A stretch of DNA of 64,000 nt, from positions 27,466,001 through 27,530,000 of the forward strand of contig OY740812.1 of the NCBI GenBank assembly GCA_963514005.1, read 5' to 3'. Below are positions 16,565 to 64,000 of this stretch, in pieces. This DNA comes from Raja brachyura (taxonomy: Eukaryota). The notes under the pieces were generated by a model, which saw nothing but the letters and a program-made list of their open reading frames with translations, ran no database searches and had not been told where the DNA came from. Each line of letters opens with the position of its first letter. Within the stretch, counting starts at the first letter, position 1. The position numbers and the translations under genes are program-made.

Positions 16565-19500
16565 TTACTGGTTGTGCTGTGATCAGTGAATTATCTGATG
16601 ATTTTCCAGACCATTGCTTGTCTTCGATTGACTTTGACATTACTTCACCAACTCTTTCTCAACCTACAGTCTCATCTTTTGATCGAACTTAACAGAAGTC
16701 AAATACCCAATGCAAACACTTTATGTGAGGAGAGGATGCAAAATTTTCATTACACTAAAGTTCGGAGCGTTCCCCAACAGGCTGAAGTAATTATGATCCT
16801 AACATTATCACCTGCAAAGAAGGAACTTGAATTGCAGATAAATTTAGTTTGAGTTCAATTTAATGTCACGTGTACCGAGGTACAGTGAAAAGCTTTCATC
16901 ACGTGCTATCCAGTCAGCAGTAAGACTGTGGATGACTTGATTGTAATCATGTATAGTGTACAGATACACGATGAAGGGAATATGTTTAGAGCAAGATAAA
17001 GGGTTCAGTAAAATCCGATTCAAGATAATCCGAGGGTCGATAGTAGCTCAGGACCATTCTCTAGTTGTTGATCGGAAGATTCCGTTGCCTGATTCTTTGA
17101 TTCTTTGAGCAATTGCACTGTAATTTCCACGAACAAAATTTGTGAAAAAAATCTTGTTGTGAAAAAAAAAGTGAACATTACACTACCCCAAAGCATCGCA
17201 ATGGATTTATTTGCACTGTTACGAGCCAAATAAGGAACAGCCACCATGAAGAGACTGTAAATGATAAATTTGCCACAGATTCAACAGAGAATTAATTGTT
17301 TAACAATGAAGAAACAACTGTTTTATTGAGCACAGTTGTGCTCAGTTTACAGACAGATCAGTGAGTGTCTGTGGGAGCTGCCTGGTTTGTCCACCACGAT
17401 AACACCTCCGCGACTGGTGTCTACTGGGTGAATGGACTCAAGGGCTGGTCAAGCAACATCTCATGTGGTTGTACATGTAGAAAAAATGCACATTGATATT
17501 GTGCCAGATTGCACCATCACAATCGCGCATTACGTCAGATCCCACGAGCCGGACAACCCATCACATGCGGTGGCACCGACATGTACTGGTGGGAGGTGGA
17601 AGCCCTGGGAGTTCTCAACACTGAATCTAGACTGCCAGCAGACCCATGGACCCATGAAATGGCTAACTACCGACAAGGAAACTGCTTCTTGACCATGATC
17701 CACCTCCCTCCCTCCCTCAGCTATGAATCAGTGCCCCTCCATATTGAACAGCACTTGGAAGTAGCACTGTTGCAATGAATGCACACAACTTACTCAAGTA
17801 GGTCCATCGCCAAGAGTTAGGGTGGCACGGTGATGGTAGAGTTTGTGCCTTGCAGCGCCAGGGACCCAGGTTCGATCCTGACTACGGGTGCTGCTTGTAT
17901 GGTATATTTCCTCCCACACTCTTAAGATGTACAAGTTTGTAGGTTAATTGACTTGGTAAAATTGTAAATTGTCCATAGTGTGTGTAGGATATTGCTAGTA
18001 TGCGGGGATCGCTGGTCGGCGTGAACTTGGTGGGCCCAAAGCGCCTGTTTCACAGCTGTGTCTCAAAAAACGAAACTAAATTAAAAAACTAACGTTGGTT
18101 GGTAACACAATCAGTGACCAAGCAGGTTGAGTTCTACGGAACAAAGCTGCCAGGTTGGGTCAGTGAATGAACGAATGAGAGGTTAATGACTTGATTACAT
18201 CCTTCATTATCTACTCAAGCAGATCCAGCTGCCCATGAGAGCTTTGCAGTAGTGATCACAACATGTCCTCTGGAGGTGAAGTCCCAGCTTCACCCCAAAG
18301 ACACAGTGCATGGTGTTGAGTGGCACTGCCATCGTGCTAAACAACTGGCTCAGAACACATCTGGCAGCTTGCAACAGGTACTGTGGACCATCATAAGCAG
18401 CAGAAAGATGTATCAGCACAAGATACATCCTCATAACACAGCATCTCCTACACTTTACTTTTATCATCAAGCAAGGATATCAAACCTGGGTCAGAGAGGA
18501 ATGCACATGACATGCCTAAAACTGGGATAGACAGGGTGAATGGACAACTGGTCAGGAGTTAACCCCCCAGTGAAGCTGGAAGGCAGGACCAATACACATT
18601 AAACCACCACAACACAAGGCTAGGAGATCTCAAGTCAATGGGTCAAGTCAAATCTCTGCAACCCTCGCGCATCCAGTAACGAATAGAAATACATTAAACG
18701 CTGAACAGAATGAGCTCCACAAAGCTCTCATTCTCAGTACGGGCGGGTCACAGCATGTGAGTGCTGCAGGTAAGACTGAAGCATTTCCAATCCCAGTCAG
18801 CCAGATGTCAAATAGATGAAGCATCTCAGCTTCTTCCTGAGCTCAGTATCACCTTGGAAACTGGCCCTCAGCTGATTGAAACGTTAATGTGCTGGAGTAA
18901 CTCAGCGGGTCAGGCAGCATCTCTGGAGGAAATGCACGGACAATGTTTCAGGTTGGGTCCCTTTCCGACTGGAAGAAGGATCCCGACGCAAAACGTTACT
19001 TATCCATTCCCTCCACCTCCACAGATGCTTCCTGACCCATTGAGTCATTCCAGCACTTTGTGTTTTCCTCAAGATTCCAGCATCTGCAGAGTCTTGCGTC
19101 TCCTCTAATGATTTGATTCACTTATAATATAATAAAGAAACATAGAAACATAGAAAAATAGGTGCAGGTGTAGGCCATTCAGCCCTTCGAGCCAGCACCG
19201 CCATTCAATATCATGGCTGATCATCTAAAATCAGTACCCCATTCCAGCTTTTTACCCATATACCTTGATTCCTTTAGCCCAAAGGGCTAAATCTAACTCG
19301 CTCTTGAAAACATCCAGTGAATTGGCCTCCACTGCCTTCTGTGGCAGAGAATTCCACAGATTCACAACTCTCTGGGTGAAACAGTTTGAGTACCCAATAC
19401 AGTTGCGTTAATACAGTGAGGCTGTTCCTAGACCCACTGCATCACAGCGCAGGAGACCAGGGCTCTATCCTGACCTCGGGTGCTGTTGTGTGGAGTTTGC

Positions 19501-29300: not shown

Positions 29301-32300
29301 AAAATATGCACAAATTGTAATCGCTATTTGGACAAATCACTTATCCGTAGTGAACTGGATATGAGTTGCAAGGCAAAATCGCCCAGACTTATTGTATACA
29401 TCTAAGTTGGTATCCACAAACACGAGTGTTTTCATTCAGGGTTCAATGTCTGTAGAAATACATAGATCCTGGTTCAGTTTTTAAACAGTAGACTATGGAG
29501 GTGGGACTAGCCAGTGGAGGCCATGGAAACAGGCCCTTCGGCCCAACGAGTACATGCCAGCCATGGAGGTGGGACATTTTTAGTTTTAGAGAAGCAGTGT
29601 GTGAAAAAGGCCCTTTGAACCCCTGAGTTCACGCTGACCATCGATCACCCGTTCACACTAGTTCTGTTATCCTATTTTCACACCGTGGGCAATTTACAGA
29701 GGCCAATTAATCTACCATATTTGGGATGTGGGAGGAAACCAGGATATCCAGAGGAAACCCATGCGGTCACAAGGAGAATGTGCAAACTCCACACAGACAG
29801 CATCCGAGGCCGGGATCAAATCTGGGTCTCAGGCACTGGGAGGCAGCAGCTCTTCCAGCTGCACCACAAACCAAAGGCAAGTTGCAAGAGCTCATTATCC
29901 CAGGTTTAATCTTTAGCAACTGAATTGCTTCTTCTTAGAAATGCTGCAGATTTTTAAGCTAACAAATACAAGTTGATGTGGTCATTATCATTTAGTGTAT
30001 TTCAGTGCAAGAGTATCTTTAAGAACTGATTGAATGTGTGAGGTTTGACCTTCTGGTATTGTTGCATCTGACACCACCTTTACCTGCGAGTTTACTGCCT
30101 TCATTAAAGGATGCTCAACCTTTAGTCCTACCTCTCAGCAAGATGGACGTTACTGAGACTGCTGACACTATATCTGCACTGGATTTGTGATGTTGCTGCT
30201 TAAGGGAGTATTGGGCAGTGATCCCAGATGAACAGAGAATGGGGTTCTCCAAGTACAGCTGTGATATTGGCTGGCAGTGGCAATGCCAGAGATGTTGGCC
30301 AGGTCTCGAGATATAAACGGCCTCAGCCAATTGACGAGCCTGTGGAATTAATGGAAATGTTCCCAAGGGCAAAACATACCATCCAAAACCATGGGGGAGA
30401 AACACAACAATACACTGAAAGAAGACATTGTTGTTATTGGTGGTTGGGCCAGAGATATGGGATATATTGAGGAGTAAACACCATGAACTTCAGAGGTGGC
30501 TCGGGCAAGAGTATAGTGAATATCCCAAAGGGATATTCCAATTTGTCATCATCAGAGATGTTTGAGAGCTACAGTTCTGGTATGTGCAACCAGGGACTCG
30601 AAGAAATGAACGTAAACAGATGGTTAGTCCAGTGTCAGTAGCAGAGATTACATTTCCAGTCCTCTTTAGATTGGGCATTGAGGAATTGCTTAATTTATGG
30701 ACTGGTTTAGTTTAGAGATGCAGCGTGGAAACAGGCTCTTCAGCCCACTAAGTCCATGTCGACCAGCAACCACACATTCTCTAATTCTATCCTACACACT
30801 AGGGACAAGTTACAGAAGCCAATTAGCCTACAAACCTGCATGTCTCTGGAGTGTGGGAGGAAACTGGAGCAACCGGAGAAAACCCACATGGTCACAGGGA
30901 AAACATACAAACTCTGGATCAAACCCGGGTCTCTGGTGTTGTAAGGCAGCAACTCTACCGCTGAGCCACTGTGCCGCAATGTATTTCAGAGTATTTATGC
31001 AAACCTATTTAACACATTGGATTTAATGTTCCAGGTGTGCCAGTTTCACTTGGGGAATTGTGTGTAAGAAAGAGCTGGTTTAAATTGAAGATAGACACAA
31101 AATGCTGGAGTAACTCAGCGGGACATGCAGTATCTCTGGAGAAAAGGAGTGGGTGACGTTTCAGGTTCGTGACCCTTCTTCAGACCCAGTCTGAAACGGC
31201 ACCAATTCCTTCTCACCAGAGATGCTGCCTGTCCCGCTGAGTGACTCCAGCATTTTGTGGCTGTCTACACTCGGGACATTGTTCCAAGGTATAAACGGAG
31301 AACAAATCCACAGAAATAATAATGGCAACATGGTCTTCATTACATCTCAGTCACAGGGGTGCAACAAGAGGGCTTGGCTGGAAAGATCACATGATTTGAG
31401 TAAGACTGTAAGTAACACGGGAGCAAAGGTTCTGCATGTTAGAGCAGCTGCTGGGCGTCAGAATGCTCTTCAAATGAGCACATCACGCAGGAGTCATAGA
31501 GCTTTACAGCACGGAGACAGGAGCTTCCTCCCACCTCATTCATGCTGAACAGGTTGCCATTCTGGGCTAGTTCAATTTGCCTGCAGCGGCCCCATATGCA
31601 TCTGAACCCTTCATATCAATATATCTGTTCAGATGTCTTTTGAAGTTCAGGTTCCGCAAAGACAGTAGTACCTATTTGGATTGGATGCAAGGTTGCAAGG
31701 ATATGGAGAAATCCTGTGGGGATACTGCACCAGCTGAAAGCCTATAACAAGAATGTAGAAATATAAATGTAGCATCCATCGATTAGATACCTGAAGAGGG
31801 TGACAAGGACAGTACAATTAAGGCCAGCTCATTGACAAGCCAAGTATCATAACAGGCAATGACACACTGGTAATTAGATTTATTGTCTGTTAAAAGTTAT
31901 GCTGATCAACTGGCTGGAGTTTTTGCAGTCATATTCAACCTCTCATTACAATGGTCTCCCCACCTGCTTTAAAAATACATCAATAATACCAGTGCCAAGA
32001 AGGGCCTGGTGACATACCTCAATGACTACCGATTGGTGGCACGTGACGAGCGTGCTTTGAAAGGTTGGTTATGATGCAAACCAACGCCTGCCCCAGTACT
32101 AACCTGGGCTCTCGTCAATTCATCTTCTGCCACAGCAGATTGGCAGCTTCAAGTTCCTGATCATACTCATCTCCTTCTGCAGGTGACCAATGGACACATT
32201 GACTAATTACCATTGCAGCCGGTTCAGAAATTAATGCTCAAGAACTGGGAGGCTGCAGAGAATGGTGAACATTGCCTAGTCCATCACGGTACTGACCTTC

Positions 32301-35300
32301 CCACCATGAAAAGGATTTGCCTCAAGGTGACAGCTAATATTGTCAGATTAACACCACTCTGGGCATGCTCTCTTCTTCCTTCTACCATCAGGAAGGTGTA
32401 GGAACCTGAGAATTATTACTTCCATGTTTCAGAACAGTTACCTCCCATTAATTATCTGGGTCTTAACTGCTCTGAACAACCCTAATCACAAATCTGCCTT
32501 GGCACTGAACCTTTATGAACTTTACACTAGTATGTTTGGTCTATGTACTTCGGTTTTGCATTATTGTGTTCAAGTTATAGTCAGAGTCACATAGACGGAA
32601 ACAGGCCCTTCGGGCCACCTTGCCTATGCCAACCAATGTGCCCCATTGATACTAGTTGAACCTGCCAAGGTTTGCCCCATATCTTTCTAAATCTTTCCTA
32701 TCCATGTGCCTGTCCAGTTTATTTGGAATAATTGATAAGTTATTATATATATGTATTTTATTTATGTGTTCCTGTACCTAATGTACCTGTAAAGCTGCAA
32801 CATGTGATAACTCCATTGCATAGAAAGGAACTGTAGAAGCTGGTTTATATCAAAGATAGACACAAAGTGTTGGAGTAACTCAGCGTGTCAGGCAGCATCT
32901 CTGGAGAAAATGGATGGATGACGGGTCGGAACCCTTCTTCGGTCATGATATCATTGTTCTGGTTCGTATCAGGTGCATACAGTCAATAACCAAGCTTGAC
33001 TCTTGTCGGTCAGGGTGCAAATTAAAAATATCCACGATCATTTTCCAATGCGGCATTGAAAAATGATTCAGCACTTACTCAGGAGACCATTTGGAGTTAC
33101 AAGGCAGCAGAAGAGGATGGTGTGTCCAGGAGTGTATTGTAGTCACGGGACACGGGTTTGCACTGGGAAAAATGGGCAAAATCTGAACTGAATACTCGGA
33201 TTTGGAGACTATATTTTCAAAACAAAAAGCATGGCTCTGGAATGGATTGTTAGCCCCACCGGCCACCACACCCCGGTCCCCAACCAGATCAGCTTGAGAA
33301 GTGCCAATTCAGCCATAACGTGCAGATCCTGGCAGCAGAGTTACAGACGAGAGATTCAACAAAGTAGTCACAGAAAAGTAGTCACACATGGCTTCCAGCG
33401 TGACTATCCGGGACAGTGAGATTGCAGTGAATATTGGTAGATCACTGCAAGAAGGCAGCAGCGGTGATCAAGGTACTGTTACAGATGGAATTTGATGATG
33501 ATCCGAATGACAAAGAACGTGAAACTTGGCCCAAAAGAACAGATAAAAAGTTAAGCACCTTTCTGGAAGTAATCACACCACCATTTTCAACAAAGCGTAT
33601 AGATGTTGTGTGGTAAGCTGGTCTTGAAAATGTTATGTGGTTTAATGCCAAGTATTTACTTGGCAGTAAATGGGACTATGATATCCCCAGAAGTGGGTTT
33701 GTGATGAGTGAGCAGTATCAGCATTGAATATAGCTTCCTTGATGTAAAAAAAATGCTGAAGGCTTTCTATTGAGAGTCATTGATTTGCATTGCCTGCCTT
33801 TCAGGAGTCTCGTAATAGGGACTGGCTCTTTCACTTCCTGCAATGCAATGCAGAAATTCCACTGGGATAGCAATGAAATACCAAGGTAGAAGATTCAATT
33901 ATAGAAGAGTATGAAAAGGCCACCATGAAGTTGAGGAGCAAACTTATAATCACAGAGTATGTGAATCCCAGACTAGTTCTCTGTGCTTCACTAGCCCAGA
34001 ATGAAGGATCTCCAACATCATGAAGATAGCTGTAGGGAGGAACTTAAGATGCCGGTTTATACTGAAGATAGACACAAAATGCTGGAGTAACTCAGCAGGT
34101 CAGGCAGCATCTCTAGACAAAAAGAATAGATGGCTTATCGGTCCGGTACCTTTCCTCAGACTGTTTCTGAAGAAGGGTTCTGACACTTCTCAGAAACAAA
34201 GGTTTCCGATTGAAACAATACCCATTCCTTTTCTCCAGAGATGCTGCCTGACCCGCTGAGTCACTCCAGCATGTTATGCCTATCTTCACCATGTAGATAG
34301 CTGGCAGTTTCCCTTGGAGCCACTGGTTGGTCATCAGTGTGTTTCAGTCTTCAGTTGTGAATAGCTGCGAATGGTCCGGGGCAAAGGCATAATTTGGACA
34401 GTGACAATGAGGAAATCTTCACCGCTCCTGGGACAGACAGTGCCATTCAAGATTGGGAACCAAAATGCTGGAGTAACTCAGCGGGTCGAGCGGCATCTCT
34501 GGAGAGCATGGATAGGTAGCACTTTGGAACAGGACCCTTCTTCAGACGGTTTCAATGGGCCACTCTTTGCCACTGTGTTCTGCTGCAATGTGTCCATGAA
34601 GATGTTGATGTTAAGACAAGGATAAAACAGGATGTGAGACTAGACGTGTTTGAAGCCCATCTAGAAGTGTGATCTGCTGGCATGGATATTTGTTTAATGT
34701 TAGAACTTAGAACGTAATCACAAATTTATTTTTTGCAGTGAAAAGACTAAGGGCATAATAACTTTATTATTGGTTAAATGTATGTTAAATGATGGTTTGC
34801 ACAAGTTTATTACCTTCATTTAAAAATGCAGTATAGTTTAGATGAATGTATTTGAAAAAAGTGAGCAGATGTAGTGGGCTAGACACATTTAGTAATTACT
34901 AACTTGGAAAGGGTATCTGTTAGCTGATGTAATGTGCTTTAGTCCACGGCACTATTAAAGCATCACAAAGTGCTGGAGGAACCCAAAGGCAGCATCTATG
35001 CAGAACATGGAGAGGTGACATTTTGGGTCAGGACCTTTCTTCCGTGTTGGTGCGAGGAAAGCTGGAAGAGAGGAGAGGGAGGTAATAGGTGAATACAGGT
35101 GAAGGGGTGGGGAGTTGATAGGCAGGTTGATAGAGGGGTTAATATCCTTAATCGGACTTTGGTGGCTTTCCATTGTACTAAACAATATTCCCTTTCCCTG
35201 TATCTCTATACTGAAAATGGACTGATCATAATCATGTATTGTCTTTCTGCTGACTGGTAAGCACGCAACAAAAGCGTTTCACTGTATCTCGGTACACGTG

Positions 35301-45431: not shown

Positions 45432-47164
45432 AGGCCCTGTCCCACTTACGTGTCCATGGCACGCAAATTACGCAACCTCGTTGTCGCGTTGAGGCACACG
45501 GGCATCGTGTAGCCGCACGGGAGCGGTCCAACTGAGAAGCATGTAGGGGCATGGAGTTGTGCGCGAGATCTCGCAGCACTCCGAAATTTTGTAGCGAACG
45601 AAATCTTCGCGCGCCACCGGCCCGTCGCGTAACTGACGGCCAATGTGGGACAGGCCCAAGACCCTGGCGCAATGCAACGTCTCACCTCCAGCCAGGCATG
45701 TGGCATCAGGGTAGGCAAGGTAGGCACTGCCTACCCTGACTAAAATTATAACATAGTAATGTCTAAATATAAATAGTAAAGGCATGGGAGAATGATGCCT
45801 ATGTAAGAGACCGATCTCTTCGGTAGGCATAATTCTCCGTGCCTTTCATCCGCAGCGCTTGTAACACGGGAAGGTCTGTGCAGCCCACGTGTCTTCAGTG
45901 CTGCCTGAAGCCGTCAGTTTCAAGCAGGGCTGAAGGCAGCAGAAATTCTGCCTTTGCAGCACTGCGCATGCGCAGCGCAAGTTTCTTGGCGGGGTTTTCA
46001 AATATGGTTTGTCGTGTACCAATGATGTGGTAAGTACATTTCTTGGTGATGTTTTTAAATACCATATTTCCCGGGGTGTGGGGGTGGGGGGAGAGCTCCT
46101 TTCCAAGCCTTTGGGGAGTCTGGCCCGGGGTAAAGTTGCGGGGAGGGCACGAATGTTATGGAGGAGGGGATTGGGATAATGCCACGGAGGCGTGGAATGC
46201 CACTGCATTGAGGCGGGGCGGGGGAGAAGTAGCTCGGGTGGCTGAGCGGCCACCGGGCCGGACAGCGGAACCAGCCGCCACCTTAGCTCCTTCTGCCGGT
46301 CCCCGCTCACCTCTGGCAGACCTCCGTCTAAAAACCTCTCTCCTGCCGCTCGCTGGCCTCACTCATGCCCTTAAATTCCAACAGCGCAATTGAGGTTACT
46401 CAACTGTGGGAATTTAAGGATTTGCAGGAAGCTGCTGACATGAGCGAAGTTGGCGAACGGCAGGTGACAGGTGTTCCGACGGAGAGCACTGCCAAAGGTG
46501 AGCGGGAAGGCGCTGAAGTGGCAGCCAGTTCTGCTGCCGGGTCCCGGTGGCCGCTCGCAGCTACCCGAGCTGCTCTATCCCCAGCTACAGTGCGTGGCTT
46601 CACGCTCAGAGAGCTGCGGCAGCGGTGACTGAGTTACTGGCATTATCCCCGACACCCTCCTTTCAACACTCGTGTCCTCCCCACAACTTTATCCCTGGCA
46701 GACTCTCCACACGCTGTGAAAGGAACTGTTCCCCCAATTGGTCCCTTGAACAAGTGTTGTCATTCAATAAGATGACAACTGATTCAACTATTCCCTGTGG
46801 TCCCATTTTTCCCACCATCTCTCCATCTCTCATCACCCTTCACACAATTGAAGATAGACACAAAAAGCTGGAGTAACTCAGCGGGACCGGCAGCATCTCT
46901 GGAGAGAAGGAATGGGTGACGTTTCGGGTCAAGATCCTTCTTTCAGACAGAAGAGTCTCGACCTGAAACATCACCTATTCCTTCTCTCCAGAGATGTTGC
47001 CGGTCCTGCTGAGTTACTCCTGCATTTTGTGTCAATCTTCAAATGACGTCACGCGCTCCAAACGGCTGTGCATTCAAATGAAGTCACGTGCGACCTACGT
47101 GCCTCAACGCGACCACGAGGTCGCATAATTAGCGTGCCAAGGACACGCAAGTGGGACAGGGGCT
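45432..47164. mobile_element. PIF/Harbinger-like MITE with nested insertions
   Basis: Imperfect TIRs of about 66 bp (aggccctgtcccactt... and ...aagtgggacaggggct) with TAA/TTA flanks. Inserted into a Penelope-like ORF relic. Confidence 0.8.
46849..47042. repeat. Head-to-head (palindromic) Penelope-like terminal repeat pair
   Basis: gaagatagacacaaaa...gtgacgtttcgggtc is followed by its reverse complement. Similar pairs lie near 18885-19100, 24235-24390, 31085-31260 and 34065-34290. Confidence 0.8.
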
Positions 47165-49884: not shown

Positions 49885-51505
49885 TCAACTCATTAGATCG
49901 TGGCCCTCTTTATTGATCAAATCCACCTCTGATTTGCTCTTTAAAACAGAGTTTAACTGAGTCTCATACTCTGCATCTTTCATGTCTACACATGCCTTTC
50001 GCAAGATTTCCATGTTAACAGATTGTTGACCTTCGTTAATGGTCCATTGTGCAGGTAACTGAATATCCCATTCAGATTCTGATGAAAATATATCTGTTTG
50101 ACCTGTATTATTTTTAAAAGCAAAATGGCAGAAGTTGACAGAACTTTTACATCCACTTTCATCCATTTTTGCATCCAGGAATGGGTCATATCCAGGCAGT
50201 CTCTTGGTACTGGTTTTATCAGAGGCAGTAAGCTGCACTACAGGACTTTGCGCTGCCATTCCAGGTTGAATTTCCTTGTGTGTGTTTTCAAGTTTTGTTT
50301 CTCCTGTAAGCACAATTTCCGTATCAAGGACAACTTTGCTTTTTGGCGACACAAAATCTTCAGTGTTCGGAACAGCTGATACCACCAACTTATTTATATC
50401 CTGATCTGTAGTGTTGCTCAAAGTAACTTTCAGTTGCACTTCCTCATTGAAAGCAATTTCAGTGGCCTTAACAAATTGAATGTCTTCACTCACTTCTTGA
50501 TTATTTGTGGTAGTAGTGTTTGATAAATATTTTTGTTTCTCTTCACAATTCCAAACAACTCGTTGAAGATTTACCATGTTTTTGAAATTGGTCTTTGTTT
50601 GCAAGTCTTCTAGACCTTCTTTAATATTAGACGGTTTGTCCAAGTTCAGCTTAGTTGATAAGTCAAAATGTTCCCCCATGGCAATGTTCATGGAATATGT
50701 AGTTGGAAGCACACTTGGTTGAAAACAAGTAGATGTGAACGTTTTGTCCACATCTGATAAATAAAACAATTCTGTATGTGCTTGGGACAAATTATTGACA
50801 AAAGAATTGGTACTTTTAAAGAAAGTAAAAAAATTACACACTTCAGACAAATCATTCAGTCTAGGTCTTAGATTGTTCTCATTTTGTGAACTAGCATCAT
50901 TGGACCTTTTGCGTTTTTTGAAATTGCAATTATTCCCCATTGTATTTGCATCGCAATCAACCTTCTGGAATTTAGGGAATGCCTTCACACAACTCAAAAT
51001 TTCCTCAGGAGCAGAGTTCATATGTTCTTGCATTTCTTGATGGCAGGTTACTGAACTTCCCTTTTTGTCGGCATCAAATGAGGCTTCCTCCATATGAGCA
51101 TTCATCACATCCAGTTGTTCATCAGATTTGTGGCATGCCGCTTCCCCTACTGTTCTGAAATCCAATAATTTCACCACCAGTTGTTTAGAACATCTATCTG
51201 TTCCATTTGTGGAGTTTACAGATGCCTGGTCATGTTCCTGCTGAAGGGGATTGTGTTTCGATACGTCCATGTTTCTGTCTTCCTTCGTTCTGTCGGGTTT
51301 TACCTGCTGCAGCTTTGAATCCTGTCCCATCATTTCAACGTGTTCCAGATTTTTTAAAGGGAGATTTATCACTAGGCTATCAGACACCGAGTCAAGGGAA
51401 CGATCTTGTTCTTCATCCTCAAGAACAAAATTAGTAACTGCCTGCAGTGATTCCACGTACATCTTAGATAGGGAAATTCCAGTATTTGATGCAGTCTTTG
51501 TGGAT
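49885..51505 (-). CDS. DBF4B: DBF4B-like terminal exon (about 539 aa C-terminal tail, TGA stop)
   Basis: The long ORF 49885-51585 is entered at acceptor acattcag| in phase 2, matching the previous exon (Q-R-STKTAS). Contains an NLS-like KKRKR. Confidence 0.8.
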
Positions 51506-52273
51506 CTGAATGTAAAGCACCAATAAATATTACACGTCAAAGAGAGACAGTCAAATATCACTGGAATCTTGCAACGTTTGTTCATAAGTTAAGAAGCAGA
51601 ATTAGGCCATTTGGCCGATCATGTGAGCTCCGCCATTCAATCATGGCTGATCTATCTTTCCCGCTAAACCCCATTCTCCTGCCTTTCCCCCAGAACCTCG
51701 ACATCAATACTAATCAAGAATCGATCTATGCCTTAAAAATATTAATTGACTTGACCTCTGCAGCCTTCTGTGGCAAAGGTTTCCACAGACTCACCACCCC
51801 CTGACTAAATAAATTCCTCCTCATCTCCTTACTAATGGAACGTCCGTTACTTCTGAGGATACAAATTATTAGAGAGCTTAAAGTGAAGAACAGCTCAACT
51901 TTTGAGCAAGTGAGACCCAGATTGTACTGATATCTGCCTGGCAGTGGTCAGCAAGTTCTAGTGTGTGTTTATGCCCCTGGGCACGTTAGTGCAAAATGGA
52001 ATGCACTCAATGTGCAGCAACTGTATCTGGCCCCTTCACTTTTTGCCAATCACAGAGAGTGCAGTCTTTTGAATCTTCATTTTTTTTTTGTTGTATTATA
52101 GATTGTTCTGCAATAAAATGAATCGAATACAACATGGTAGATTAATTAGGGAACACTATTTCCATTACGTGGGCTGATTTGGTTACAATATGAGTTTTGA
52201 TCAGGAACTAGGTCTACACTAATCAGATGCAGGCTGCCATTGTCACCACGGAAAGTTAGAGAGAGTTACTTTT

Positions 52274-54141: not shown

Positions 54142-56835
54142 CTGAAATTAAAAAAGGGGAATTAAATAGTTTTTCAAAGTTATTTAAAATGTTGCTAAAA
54201 CCCCCAGTGAAGCCTCAAGTTATGTGATTTTTAATTGGGATCAGCAGAGCAGTATCTAACTAATGACATGCCCCATGGTATTGAACTGGGCCAGCTGTCT
54301 GCAGTCTTCCCATGCCAGTGTCTGTCTGATGCACATGTTCAGGGTCTGCATCACTGCCACAGAGTATCCCAGGCTCCAGGCTGGAGGCTTCAGTGGCAAA
54401 TGATACCATAGGAAAGCCCTGCTTTGACATCTGGTAAAGCGTTTGCCCTAGTTTTGCTGGTTGCCAAAAAGATCTTTAATTAATTGTCAAATGACCAACG
54501 GTCAGGGAGACATTAACAAACTATTTAAAATGAAGTTAAGAATGAAAACTATTTTTGAAATTATATAAACAAAGTAGGTAAAAAAAAAAAATTCAAAACA
54601 TCAAATTAATCCAAAGTAATAAAATACAACTTTTCTTTCCCTTTATCTTTTGAGAAGAGTCCTGCAGTCCCTACTAATATTGTTTCTACAGGTTGAAGTT
54701 GGTCCAGCATGTGAGAGGCAATTCCCCAGTGTAGATAGTGAGAATCTCAGCAAGAGGTATTCAGAGTTGGTTAGTAGTCTGGTTTAGTTATGTTCATTGT
54801 CACGTGTACAAAAGTACAGTGAAAAGCATTTTTGTTGTGTGCTATCCACTGGAAAGACTGTACATGATCCCAATCACACTGTCCACAGTGTCGATACAGG
54901 ATAAAAGGAATGTACATATATTGCCAATTGCAGAAGATGCAGACTTCCTTCTATTTAAACAGTTAAATGGGCAGTTACATAGTTAAAAAATCCAAACCCA
55001 TAACTTGTATCTGCGCAATTGCCATTTTAAAATAATTTATTGAGGTTTATATTAAAATACTGCTATGGAAGGGATAGTTACAGCAGAATCACAGTTACCA
55101 CCCAGTTCTTGGCTACAATCCCAACAACATATCTTTTCTCTTCCAAACTTTCTTTGTTTTGTTAGTTTAACGTTCAGTTACTGTTAAGTCACATCCATGA
55201 AAGAACATGATTTAGGCCATGCCACCTAACAAGGAACTGCCCTGGACTACAATCTGGCTATGAGGATGCATTACATGTTTATAAATGTAATCAAATGAGC
55301 AAAGTAGATGACTTTCAGGCTAACAAATGCGCATTTGCTACTGCCCAGCTCATCTGGCTAAAAGATGGAAGAAGGAAAACATGGACTAACCAAAATATTT
55401 CTTCTTTTAGCAAAAAATGAAATAGGCCGAGCAGAATATATGTTGAGTTCCGATAAATACATAAATGTTTCTTTTAATTACAACCAGAGCAATTGTTGAA
55501 TCCTTCGCTATTAAGCTTATGCACCTGGAAAGGTTTCAGAAAAATGAGTGAACAGTAATAATTGAGTAATGACAAGGAACGGCAGATGCTGATTTAATGC
55601 TGGACAAATGCTGGAGTAACTCAGGGGGTCAGACAGCCTCCCTGGAGAACATGGATGGGTGATGTTTTGCGTCAGAACCTTTCTTCGGACTATTATTCTT
55701 CAATTAGTATTCTGACTTATTATTATTCAATTATTCTTCAGTAATAATTGAGAATTGTTTAGTGATATGTATGACTCGAGGGTTTCATTGTTAAATGATA
55801 GCACAGTGAGACGACTCTCCTCCTCAGGTTCCTCTTTTCCTCGTATGATCCGTACTCAAGGTTCCAATGTTGCTTTGCTCTTTACATGCATGTCCTCTTT
55901 AGTGATACATTGAGCTTGTTCCAATTTGACACCCAACTATTCACTCAGAGCTCCACCACACAGAAATGGTTAGAATAGAAAAAAATAATTAATTGCCACT
56001 GTTGAGCCTAATCGCTGCTCAACTCTGAACACTTTCATAGGAAACAGCAGAAAACAAGTAAAACCAAAAATGCTGGAACCAATTTGGAAAGCATTGGAGA
56101 CCATTAAAAAGGAGACAAAAGGGTAGGGTATTTCTGTCTTGATGTTGGAGGACTTCTGCACAGCGTCAAAGTAAAATGCTTGAATATTATTAGTCTGCGA
56201 GGGAGACATTAGGTCATCAGGGAGTGGAGAAAGAAAACAGATCGTCTTCCATGAGATACAACCATAGAAACAGCATGGATGGGTGTTATTTGGCTCATGG
56301 TGTCTATAAAGTGACTATTTTGTCATTCCTAATAGGTTACAAGACTTCACGTTTTTTTGCAGCTACTTCTTTTAAATGTGACAAAGTGGCTGCCTCCACC
56401 ATTCTTTCAAGTGGTATGTCCTAAATTCACTGTACTCAGTGATAACATTTCTTCTTTGACTCTTTTCTAATTCTGTACCAGTTACCTCTAATCAATATCC
56501 CCCATCTTTTGTCTCAAAGAGATAGGCGGGAAGTGGTTTAGTGCAAGGAAACCGGCAGAGGTATTAACATGTGTTCTAATCATGGTTTTCCTGTTCCAGG
56601 ATTAACTAGTTTAGGAACTTGCAACCTTTGTTCATGATAATTTTGAATAGTTTCAAGCAGAGTTTGCCACAGTAAGGAAGTGTCTGCTGATGGTCATTAA
56701 GCTGGTTATTTGTTGTCTAGTTTGGAGCATGGTAAACCATTGGGATTGTAAAAGTTTGAAAGTAACTGAAAGAGTATTCAGCGAATTATGGATACTGCAT
56801 ATCCACATCTGAAGAATTTACCAATGTTAAAGACG

Positions 56836-57962
56836 AGAAACATAGAAACATAGAAAATTGGTGCAGGAGTAGGCCATTCGGCCCTTCGAGCCTGCACCGC
56901 CATTCAATATGATCATGGCTGATCATTCAACTCAGTATCCTGCACCTGCCTTCTCTCCATACCCCCTGATCCCTTTAGCCACATCTAACTCCCTCTTAAA
57001 TATAGCCAATGAACTGGCCTCAACTGCCTGCTGTGGCAGAGAATTCCACAGATTCACCACTCTCTGTGTGTAAAATGATCTTCTCATCTCGGTCCTAAAA
57101 GACTTCCCCCTTATCCTTAAACTGGGACCCCTTGTTCTGGACTTCCCCAACATCGGGAACAATCTTTCTGCATCTAGCCTGTCCAATACCTTAAGAATTT
57201 TGTAAGTCTCTATAAGATCCCCCCTCAATCTTCTAAATTCCAGTGAGTACAAGCCGAGTCTATCCAGTCTTTCTTCATATGGAATCCATCCTGCCATCCC
57301 AGGAATCAGTCTGGTGAACCTTCTCTGTACTCCCTCTATGGCAAACACGTCTTTCCTCAGATTAGGAGACCAAAACTGTATGCAATACTCCAGGAATGGC
57401 CTCACCAAGACCCTGTACAACTACAGTAGAACCTCCCTGCTCTTGTACTCAAATCATTTTGCGATGAATGCCAACATACCATTCGCATTCTTCACTGCCT
57501 GCTGCACCTGCATGCCTACTTTCAATGACTGGTGTACCATGACACCCAGGTCTCGTTGCATCTCCCCTTTTCCTAATCGGCCATCATTCAGATAATAGTC
57601 TACTTTCCTGTTTTTGCCACCAAAGTGGATAACCTCACATTTATCCACATTATACTGCATTTGCCATGCATTTACCCACTCACCCAACCTATCCAAGTCA
57701 CCTTGCAGCCTCCTAGCATCCTCCTCACAGCTAACACTGCCCCCCAGCTTCGTGTCATCCGCAAACTTGGAGAGGTTCCATTCAATTCCCTCATCCAGAT
57801 CATTAATATATATTGTAAATAGTTGGGGTCCAAGCACTGAGCCTTGCGGTACCCCACTAGTCATTGCCTGCCATTCTGAAAATTACCTGTTTACTCCTAC
57901 TCTTTGCTTCCTGTCTGCCAGCCAGTTCTCTATCCACATCAATACTGAACCCCGAATACCGT
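56836..57962 (-). mobile_element. CR1-type LINE, 5'-truncated (RT C-terminal half, 3' UTR and (tttctatg)n tail)
   Basis: SGVPQGSVLGP, FADDTKL, LVRPFLEYCIQFWSP and RLRGDLIETYKI motifs. Frameshifted. Confidence 0.95.
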
Positions 57963-58204
57963 GATTAAAGACTTAAGACAATACCGTGATTAAAGACACA
58001 ATAGAGACTAAAATCTCTATTGTGCTTACTGCGTTCCCAGAACAGGCGAGCTTCTAGGAAATATGCAGCTTCCATTTACATGCAAGCTATATTTTTTTCT
58101 GCATTAAAGAGAAATTGCAAGGAAATAAAGGAAAGAATAAAAAGTATTAAACGTTGTGCTTATGGGACACGCACATCGATATCTTCGCAAATACTCTGAT
58201 AAAA

Positions 58205-58309
58205 GTCAGATAGGGTCTGAAGAAGGGTCTCGACCCGAAACGTCGCCTATCTCCTTCGCTCCTTAGATGCTGCTGCACCCGCTGAGTTTCTCCAGCTTTT
58301 TGTGTAACC
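58205..58309 (+). ncRNA. Penelope-derived mini-element carrying a minimal type I hammerhead ribozyme motif
   Basis: CTGAAGA(a)-GGGT ctcg ACCC-GAAA-cGTC core. Stem I agatagg/cctatct. 11-bp TSD ctctgataaaa. Confidence 0.65.
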
Positions 58310-58832
58310 CTCTGATAAAAACAGTTCTTTACTTACTGACAATGATACAAGTAACAGACCCTCAGTGGGTCAGGCTGCCTCTCTGGAGAACATGAATAGG
58401 TGATGTTCCATGGGTGAACATAGGTGAGTGGGGTTTTTGGTCGGCAGATCATTGGACAAAGGTCAGGGATGAAAAAAGAACAGAAGCTGCGAGACAAAAC
58501 AATTGAAGAGTTCCAATTGTGAAGCCAGAGGAAGAAATGTACGTAGGAGGTGAGAGGAAAAATAGGTGCGAGTCCAATGAGGCACAGGAAAAAGGGTTTT
58601 AGAGGTTACGTAAAATTGAAAAATTCAATGATCATACAGTTGGGTTGGAAGCTACCCAAGTCATGCTTCTCATTCTGAAGCTATCTGACCTGCAGAATTA
58701 CTCCAGCACGTTGTGTCTTTTTTTTTTTTATAAACCATCATCTGCAGTTCATTATTTCTACAATTAACAGAACTTGGCAAGCAAAGCTCTTGTGCTTTTT
58801 GAAGTTCTTTTGTAAAAAGTCAATACACTTAC

Positions 58833-60508: not shown

Positions 60509-61979
60509 CTGTGTACATACAATTTGCAACACTTACAAATGATTCAGCAGAGAGTCTGAACTTTATGAACTTAACCATATTTCTTAAGTCAGTAAACTGT
60601 ACACATTTTGCTTAAATTGGGTGGCATATATGTGAGGTGTGCAGGGAGGCATTTGCCACCAGAATGATCAAAAGGCATTAACATGTCGAGCTCAGGAACA
60701 AAAAAAATCTTTGAACTCCAGGAAGGAAATCAAAGTGGTCGGAGAAAGAGGTGGCATTGCTATTGGAACTCGAAAGCAAATTCCAAGGTCACTGGATCAT
60801 AATATAGAAACAAAGAACTGCAGATGCTGGTTTATACCAAAGAACAAAGTGCTGCAGTAACACAGCACGTTAGGCAGCATCTCTGGAGTAAAAGGGTGGA
60901 TGACGTTTTGGGTCAAGACCCTTTTTCAGTCTCACAGTCCCGAAATGTCCCCAACCCCTAAGTTGCTCCAGTACTTTGTCTATCTTTGGCTGGATCATAA
61001 ACTTGGAGCTTTATAGGAAACGATGTCAGAGAGAAATGCTGGCAACGGTGATCCCTAATCCAGAAAGAGAACCAGAAAGCATTGAGAATGAGGGAGAACC
61101 GCCAGTAGTCAGACTCCTCCGATGTCGTGACTGAAGGCAATTCCCCCGAGAAGCGATCCCATGAGGACTGACCTGGAGGATGACCGGAAACAGGCAGAGG
61201 AGCTGCTAAGGGACAAAAGGAATAAGGAGAATGGTGTTCTTAGAGTTAGTCTGGTTGAGGATATTACACAAAATGTGTTACAACAAATGGAAATACGAAC
61301 ACCAGAATGAGGTCCACCAAACGAGTTACTCCATTATAACCCCAGTGAGCTCGGGTTCAATTCTGACTTCCAGCGCTGTCTGGAAGAGTATGCATGTTCC
61401 TGCTGTGATATATGGGTTTCCTCTCACATTCCAAATTCATGCAGATGGGTAGGAAAATTGATCATTGTTAATTGCTGTTAATGTTTAAAGGAGTGGTAGA
61501 ATCTGATGGGAGCTTGATTCTTTCATTTACAATGCCAGATAGTCTGACATCTATATATAACTAAAAATCTCATCTTGACCACTTCCTGTCAGCGCTGTAT
61601 ATTGATTTTAGAAAAAACGCTCCCATATATCGCTATGACTTTTGGCCATCTTACTCAGTCCTCCTCCGCTGAGACAGCCCAGAGGCATATTCCGATCGAT
61701 GAAAAATAAAAAAGTTATGAGTGTTTAAATAATGTTGAGACCAGCTGATTGGTCCTTTCGCCTGTCAATCACCACAAAGAAGGTAACGCCCCTTCCAGGG
61801 AGCAGGACTATAAAACCCCGGATGCCTGGACGTGAGTCAGTCATTCTGGAAGATCGCGAGGGAGTGTCCACAATAGTGATTCTAAGCTGTGAATTAACTG
61901 AGCTGTGAGTCTGCAATGTACTTGCAATAAATGATTTGTTAGTCCTCCATGACAATGCAATGAGTTGTTTGGCAATTTG

Positions 61980-62250
61980 GTGGCCTGCACTCTGCCTGAA
62001 ATGCTATGAAATTGAGTTTTGTGGCCTGCACTCTGCTTGAAATGCTATGAAATTGAGATTGGTGGCCTGCACTCTGCTTGAAATGCTATGAAATTGAGTT
62101 CGGTGGCCTGCACTCTGACTGAAATGCAATGAAATTGTGTTTGGTGGCCTACACTCTGACTGAAATGCAATGAAATTGTATTTGGTGGGCTGTACACTGC
62201 TTGAAATGCTATGAAATTTAATTTGGTGTTCTGCATTCTGCTTGAAATGG
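61980..62250. repeat. Minisatellite, unit of about 40 bp, about 7 copies
   Basis: Repeats of ggtggcctgcactctgcttgaaatgctatgaaattgagtt. Confidence 0.95.
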
Positions 62251-62266
62251 AATTTCAAGGAATAGC

Positions 62267-62437
62267 CGTGAGTGAACTGCCAGCCCACCAGCCCTGAGTG
62301 ACTGAACTGCCAGCCCACCAGCCCTGAGTGACTGAACCGCCAGCCCACCAGCCCTGAGTGACTGAACTGCCAGCCCACCAGGCCTGCGTGACTGAGCTGC
62401 CAGCCCACCAGGCCTGCGTGACTGAGCTGCCAGCCCA
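62267..62437. repeat. Minisatellite, unit of 30-31 bp, about 5.5 copies
   Basis: Repeats of gagtgactgaactgccagcccaccagccct. Confidence 0.95.
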
Positions 62438-62673
62438 ATAATCCATTTGGCCCACAATGTCCATACTAGCCCTCTGGCAAGCAGTTCATTCGGTCCACAA
62501 AACCCACACGAGCTCTCCAGAAAGCCGCCCCCCCCCACTGACCACCAATATTGGAATTGTTGCACATAAGTCATCCATGCTGCATGACATGTGCAACATT
62601 CAAGGCAAGATCTAAACAAAATTCGAAAAAGTATGTTGTAATCAGGTGCGAAAAAATTAAAAAGCATGCTTAC

Positions 62674-62719
62674 CGACTGGAATCTTCAATTTTAAGAAAT
62701 GGATGTTTTAGTTTTCCCA
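62674..62719 (-). CDS. DBF4B: DBF4B-like exon (motif M, first part)
   Basis: Acceptor ttttttgtgcag, donor gtaagc, 46 nt. Reads GKLKHPFLKIEDSS(R), closer to DBF4B LKAPFLKIEDESR than to DBF4 LKKPFVKVEDMSQ (both recalled from memory). Confidence 0.85.
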
Positions 62720-63616: not shown

Positions 63617-64000
63617 GTAGGAAGGAACTGCAGATGCTGGTTTACACCGAAGATAGACACAAAATGCTGGAATAACTCAGCGGGACAGGATATAAAAATT
63701 GGGCGTCATTTCGGGTCGAGACCCTTCTTCAGACTGAGAATCAGGGGAGAGGGAGACACAGAGATAAGGAAGGGTAAGATGTGAAAAAAACAGGACATCT
63801 AAAGAGATGATAGCTAACGAGGTGAAAGGTGAGGATTAGGGGGACTCTGTCCCTGTTGTGCCTGGGGGGGGGTGGGGGAGAGGAGGGTGAACAAGAGTGC
63901 AGCGGAGTTCTTGCTCCCCTCCCCTCAGTTACAACAGGGACAGAGTCCCCTTAGTCCTCACCTTTCACCGGATCAGCCATTGCATAATCCTGCAACATTT
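63617..64000. mobile_element. Penelope-like element fragment with inverted segment
   Basis: Terminal repeat at 63617-63735 and a 39-bp inverted repeat at 63821-63859/63931-63969. The plus arm encodes NRDRVPLVLTFH, typical of the PLE RT to GIY-YIG linker. Confidence 0.7.

Follow-up and report, generated by a model that had tools for sequence, protein, structure and literature searches.

A recent, lineage-restricted Penelope-like element end in a DBF4-family intron of Raja brachyura, probably a run-off copy of the element leader

The insert at 58194-58320 of the window (the whole 64,000-nucleotide stretch of Raja brachyura DNA analyzed) is almost certainly an end fragment of a Penelope-like element (PLE). 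On balance we judge probable the whole explanation, in which it copies the last ~98 bases of an intact PLE, is recent and lineage-restricted, was likely produced by leader-primed reverse transcription that ran off at the capped end, and is probably inert. By itself the insert is ordinary, and the interest is carried by the junction pattern of the family as a whole.

The insert is flanked on the forward strand by perfect 11-bp copies of CTCTGATAAAA, at 58194-58204 and 58310-58320. Three further organisms, each represented by one contig from a separate study (B, X3; D, X11; E, X14), show the empty site, with 58193 joined directly to 58310, 116 bp absent and the 11-bp target present once. The duplication reported in the initial annotation is therefore a true target-site duplication (TSD), its reading as a retrotransposed insertion stands, and all of its coordinates are borne out by the sequence. 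Since organisms B, D and E carry empty sites, the insertion is lineage-restricted. In X1, the best holder and possibly the source of the window itself, a contig spans the 5' junction and the 3'-junction contig has just 21 letters within the insert, while the contig of organism C ends at 58204. The site has no coverage in X9, a second sample of organism A. Between the TSD copies, a non-parental filler at the 5' junction (58205-58214, forward strand), where the parent has CCTGACCA, ends in the extra G or Gs common in short copies, and may have arisen by snap-back on the element or by re-copying of the target plus an added G. It is followed by sequence from the pLTR at the 3' end of a Neptune-type PLE that is young (58215-58312, forward strand); the 3' edge is ambiguous by 3 nt, as the CTC opening the right TSD copy also matches the element's own next bases. 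No other copy among the matches listed shares the full 105 bp of the insert. A partial older copy of the same PLE family is found at 58361-58403 on the minus strand, ~40 bp from the insert and in the opposite orientation; it predates the insert because it is present at the empty sites.

The insert lies within a GT-AG intron of phase 0 (54142-58832, minus strand) that splits the zf-DBF domain of a DBF4-family gene, whose halves match Pfam PF07535 at positions 1-17 (E 0.028) and 19-45 (E 1.9e-6). The antisense position in an intron of this family, as first annotated, is thus upheld. The more specific name DBF4B is plausible, being favored over DBF4 by putative DBF4 motifs N and M, in upstream exons at 62699 and in L119. 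A family search of the genome for a name for the host gene gave no match, and its last exon has no homologue by protein search or Atlas. A 567-codon open frame at 49885-51588 on the minus strand is probably this long last exon, and short-period tandem repeats occupy 61700-62470 in an intron of the gene. Older decayed PLE ends are located at 55606-55690, 60844-60929 and 63657-63734 on the minus strand, in the same orientation as the gene, a weak hint that hammerhead remnants on the sense strand are tolerated in the introns of this gene.

The 98 nucleotides at 58215-58312 are identical (98/98) to the end, or pLTR, of an intact parent copy, L115. This copy, a partial tandem whose unit measures 3971 nt, has an ORF of 1192 aa, which encodes a reverse transcriptase (RT) with GIY-YIG at the C terminus. 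The matches of the ORF to RVT_1 (E 2e-4) and GIY-YIG (E 2e-3) are both under the Pfam cut-off; it shows the motifs DKG, YIDD and YIGET, a C-x4-CxxC linker at residue 1059, and Atlas hits of 0.97 to RT/GIY-YIG clusters. Protein search found further copies with open frames of 1203-1204 aa, and 10 of 30 unselected loci run on upstream into a common 3' UTR and GIY-YIG coding region. Because the RT, the C-x4-CxxC linker and GIY-YIG are found in one ORF, the parent was assigned the architecture of Neptune/Nematis, defined by a CX2-5CxxC zinc-finger linker before EN (passages of PMC8557442); the label Neptune type is given by motif and is to be taken as putative. What had been described as the tail of a micro-element is the 5' leader of this parent. 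Comparison with the parent places at 58267-58312 (forward strand) the start of a 41-codon upstream ORF, cut short in the insert, which in the leader of L115 extends from +54 to +180 and overlaps, out of frame, the start of the main ORF at +167. A donor-like AAG/GTATGC is located at the main ATG of L115.

The hammerhead motif of the insert is of the known minimal kind, and we regard it as a putative ribozyme. The type I core (58217-58244, forward strand) comprises CUGAAGA (58217-58223), one extra A (58224), stem II as GGGU (58225-58228) and ACCC (58233-58236), GAAA (58237-58240), a palindromic ACGU (58240-58243) and GUC, with the cut predicted after 58244. PLEs carry minimal type I hammerheads in the pLTR (passages of PMC4209133), and the features described in those passages are all present here: the core nucleotides, a single additional base between 9 and 10.1, G10.1-C11.1, and a palindromic stub of stem III at 15.2-16.2. 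The initial assignment of a PLE-type core is thereby confirmed, and a further likeness is the prevalence of single copies related to truncated PLEs. The core is also kept within the family, since its majority 32-mer is alike in subfamily groups of 183, 28 and 12 copies (244 of 340 hits could be anchored, and 21 were left unclassified), with differences at a single loop base and at position 1.1; the flanks of the core differ among the three groups. Two-sided covariation was not found among these groups: stem II is invariant across the majorities and so uninformative, and positions 2.1-1.1 show one one-sided change (U:A to U:G). Of the 14 matches given by an Rfam scan of the window at E<=5, none was to a hammerhead family, which is uninformative for so small a motif. 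One of these matches, a MIR2118 hairpin at 46852-47037, was rejected as spurious, as it derives from a head-to-head pair of older copies of the same PLE end at 46858-47032; similar pairs are located at 31095-31259, 34072-34278 and 18891-19063.

The annotated 7-bp stem I is present in the sequence, with AGATAGG at 58208-58214 and CCTATCT at 58246-58252 (forward strand), but does not belong to the element, since its 5' strand is filler. The 3' strand (58245-58252, forward strand) pairs over 2 bp with parental sequence and over 7 bp with the filler (pair probability 0.59-0.67); the insert can fold stems I and II together (0.57-0.67). In the parent, the 9 nt upstream of the core are CCTGACCAG, found in 8,804 exact copies, and helix I is limited to 2 contiguous bp (U:G or U:A, G:C), as in D. 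virilis Penelope (passages of PMC4209133); its pair probability is 0 in the monomer ensemble, where another fold is favored. Genome-wide, AGATAGG stands ahead of the core in only 9 of 27,229 exact-core copies, and those inspected have unrelated flanks, the strand coming from an inverted piece of the element or from target sequence plus G. The fold is at shuffle level (z 0.02 for 56 nt, z -0.07 for 105 nt), and a two-copy cofold, in which stems I and II pair between molecules and not via the ACGU palindrome, bears neither way on a dimer. On sequence grounds the 7-bp stem is a private accident of the junction and not a family feature, and it was through this accident, which supplied a stem I strand, that the insert was picked as the best-folding copy.

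The genome contains 27,229 exact copies of the 37-nt hammerhead core and 32,108 exact matches of an internal 42-mer, and the window contains 30 related blastn hits, the insert included. A large family was thus found on counting genome-wide copies, as had been suggested, whereas copies with the same full 105 bp or the same filler were absent among the matches listed. The 5' junctions were analyzed in the first 100 exact-core places, within the first 5 Mb of contig C1, which is not a random sample. Parental upstream sequence is lost at once in 58 of these copies (short) and retained in the other 42 (long). In 60 copies first scored as short, two of which were later rescored as long owing to indels, the parental match ends 0 to 6 nt before TCTGAAG (8, 17, 13, 14, 5, 2 and 1 copies, respectively). 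The 10 long copies of the unselected L031-L060 set reach from 449 to more than 1470 nt upstream, and none ends in the next 440 nt. In several organisms 58215 is also a site of loose ends, where the upstream letters are mixed, in 4 of 4 runs of one contig comparison and 3 of 4 of another. The base preceding GTCTG is G in 3,584 cases versus T in 1,609, with a G/T ratio of 0.80 in the window. Furthermore, there are 1,042 perfect head-to-head palindromes centered on AG(T/A)CT, a pattern that also fits older subfamilies. An inverted piece is present in 16 of the 60 copies first scored as short, and a duplication of at least 8 nt, by a simple finder, in 22 of the 44 non-inverted ones. At L063, L076, L081 and L121, the 5' junction of a short copy contains small units that were copied again (the first 5-8 nt, or an internal AAGAAGG), which suggests that a telomerase-related RT realigned at the end of its template.

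This 5' edge coincides with the initiator-like word CCAGTCT, 2-3 nt before the hammerhead core and, in the parent, 29 nt below a TATAT. The start shared by the short copies likely marks the RT running off the start of the element RNA. No fixed difference separates 58 short from 15 long copies; two minor alleles occur in short copies only (7/58 and 6/58, versus 0/15). As short and long copies share their alleles apart from these two, their sequences give no sign of a separate short master.

The 3' ends of 66 copies are bimodal, with 38 at +91-97 and 24 at +128-135, two sites 35 nt apart; the four remaining assignments are artefacts of indels or mismatches. The insert ends at the first site and so without the 35-nt PLE tail. 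Two long copies at C1 ~1.5325 Mb (L049 and L050), tail-to-tail and ~20 bp apart, one with and one without this tail, would fit priming on the two strands of a single target.

These observations may be brought together as follows. The mRNA of the element would start at the A or G of CCAGTCT, with the TATA-like word at -29 and 2-3 nt ahead of the hammerhead core, so that 58215-58312 would correspond to the first ~100 nt of the parent mRNA. The RT/GIY-YIG protein would nick the target and prime at +95 or +130. Because of the proposed start at the initiator, these priming sites would occur twice on the mRNA, once in the 5' leader and again at the 3' end. Run-off cDNAs of 95-130 nt ending at the cap would result from priming in the leader and would be the short copies including this insert, and the long copies, with their variable truncation, would come from priming on the same sequence at the 3' end of the mRNA. 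On reaching the end of its template, the enzyme would add or re-copy a few bases, producing the extra G, snap-back and head-to-head joining, and in this insert the bases added would by chance complement the 3' strand of stem I. The ribozyme strand of the insert is probably not transcribed, because the upstream half of the promoter is absent and the insert is antisense to the host gene; the insert is probably an inert stub. We favor run-off by some margin over its competitors taken together, with the start site predicted from DNA. Elements of this account have been described: in PAc, a Poseidon element of Anolis carolinensis, the RT initiates internally at two sites that bound the tail and takes uncleaved RNA as its main template (passages of PMC11167929), and a TATA plus Inr in the pLTR, solo pLTRs and TSDs of 8-10 bp are on record (PMC3846280).

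Several points stand against run-off. Preceded by a pyrimidine tract, the CAG of CCAGTCT is also compatible with a 3' splice site, and helix I is where an intron of D. virilis Penelope ends (passages of PMC4209133). The extra G could stem from realignment onto an internal GGGTCT rather than from the cap, the two minor alleles are confined to short copies, and the duplications of at least 8 nt are seen in just half of the non-inverted short copies of a non-random sample.

The acceptor-like CAG and the D. virilis intron also belong to the most probable alternative, in which the 5' edge is a stop on full-length RNA, the RT stalling past the hammerhead at a bound protein, at a folded dimer or on a splicing intermediate at the CAG. 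The edge does coincide with the border of the ribozyme core on its 5' side, and with a pyrimidine tract and YAG that older subfamilies retain. A structural block should presumably halt the enzyme ahead of the structure instead of letting it be copied first; no common upstream exon is found in the 60 short copies, and no strong splice donor was seen by eye in the 235-nt 3' UTR. In addition, the excess of G and the end-to-end palindromes fit a free template end, and we consider such a stop unlikely.

RNA cut by the ribozyme appears not to be the template, since only one of the first 100 places listed begins at the cut, and cleaved RNA was rejected as template on this count. Matches without the 4 nt before the cut number 38,661 versus 32,108 with them. 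The first 100 include 24 extra places, of which 23 were inspected after one identical duplicate was dropped: one joins at the cut, and the others have either point changes, for the most part CpG transitions, or a junction lying further upstream. Spliced or circular copies, with the leader donor joined to the CAG acceptor, gave 0 genome matches at the one junction tried. The apparent use of uncleaved RNA agrees with the in vitro behavior of the anole element (passages of PMC11167929).

The initial annotation had put the insert forward as a candidate for a self-cleaving, non-autonomous micro-retroelement with a 7-bp stem I inside it. Such an element would be separate from the PLE and resemble a retrozyme or a SINE, spreading from short masters with PLE protein acting in trans. 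Short copies are indeed the majority (58/100), with a defined 5' edge and often with TSDs, the insert folds both stems together, and animal retrozymes derive from PLE pLTRs (passages of bioRxiv 10.64898/2026.07.22.740005). Against the proposal stand the identity of the insert with the 3' end of an autonomous parent and the origin of the stem I strand, found in nine copies from inverted element pieces or target plus G, with unrelated flanks where inspected. No other copy among the matches listed has the whole filler, and the insert is a single unit, not a tandem, with 0 matches to a head-to-tail junction at the one splice-type join tried; a separate micro-element of this kind is thus very improbable. 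A non-LTR retrozyme was rejected, as a single unit lies between the TSDs and the paired copies in the sample are mostly head-to-head, not head-to-tail, and a SINE-like family was rejected on the unshared filler (among the matches listed) and because no change was fixed between the 58 short copies and the 15 long ones compared. Ordinary random 5' truncation, common in PLE insertions (passages of PMC8557442), or later deletion of longer copies (recombination or deletion having been invoked for solo pLTRs in a rotifer, PMC3846280), can be given hardly any credence, as 58 of 100 junctions fall in a window of ~7 nt with none of 10 unselected long copies ending in the next 440 nt, a distribution that largely refutes random truncation, and as the TSD and empty sites show insertion at the present size.

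Comparison with known systems places the family close to the Neptune-clade PLEs (passages of PMC8557442), with which it shares a single ORF with RT, CX2-5CxxC linker and C-terminal GIY-YIG, a partial-tandem pLTR with hammerhead, inverted copies and an optional tail of 30-40 nt (here 35 nt). It differs in its very high number of young copies, mostly ends of ~100 bp, the clade being placed by motif alone. Kilobase-scale tandem duplications containing PLE ends are also found, with units of ~4.2 kb and 3.5 kb (L116 and L142). In contrast to the pLTR hammerheads described in passages of PMC4209133, helix I of the present parent lies 2-3 nt from the predicted 5' end of the RNA, and the 7-bp helix of the insert is private. 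PAc (passages of PMC11167929) has, like the present family, two 3' end sites bounding a tail, ~50-90 nt past the ribozyme cut, and shares extension of both strands and uncleaved RNA as template. The ORF of PAc starts at stem II, while the present main ORF lies at +167 behind an upstream ORF, and those passages do not mention 5' ends clustering at the ribozyme in the genome, as they do in the present family. Non-LTR retrozymes (passages of bioRxiv 10.64898/2026.07.22.740005) resemble the insert in being non-coding, hammerhead-bearing and pLTR-derived, but are tandem units each with a hammerhead, whereas the insert is one dispersed unit with the same sequence as an autonomous parent.

Published work already describes solo pLTRs, tails, TSDs and palindromic junctions. 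In the literature searched, including passages of PMC6155905, PMC6765202, PMC2377424, PMC8969392 and PMC12602865, we found no paper on this PLE family or on a 5' hot spot at an initiator, and no earlier statement of the cap-end cDNA account of young PLE insertions. The family may already be catalogued in Repbase or Dfam, and hammerheads of cartilaginous fish may be included in Lünse et al. (as cited in passages of PMC6765202) or in the supplements of PMC4209133.

The single insert matters little, as a dead end of a known element kind. The element behind it is intact and very young and, with more than 27,000 exact cores, offers junction data in large samples and a natural ORF that can be cloned, for studies of internal priming, of run-off at the cap and of cleavage assisted by protein; presence or absence at such loci provides lineage markers. 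PLE transposition and the role of PLE hammerheads are stated open questions (passages of PMC8557442 and PMC11167929). We give about even chances to the broader reading of this genome as an in vivo record of the Penelope cycle, in which most young insertions would be free-standing cDNAs similar to 'strong-stop' products, extending from an internal priming site to the mRNA cap with the hammerhead as their first bases. If true, solo pLTRs, head-to-head palindromes and the requirement for a tandem promoter would all follow from one mechanism, and RNA cut by the ribozyme would almost never serve as template.
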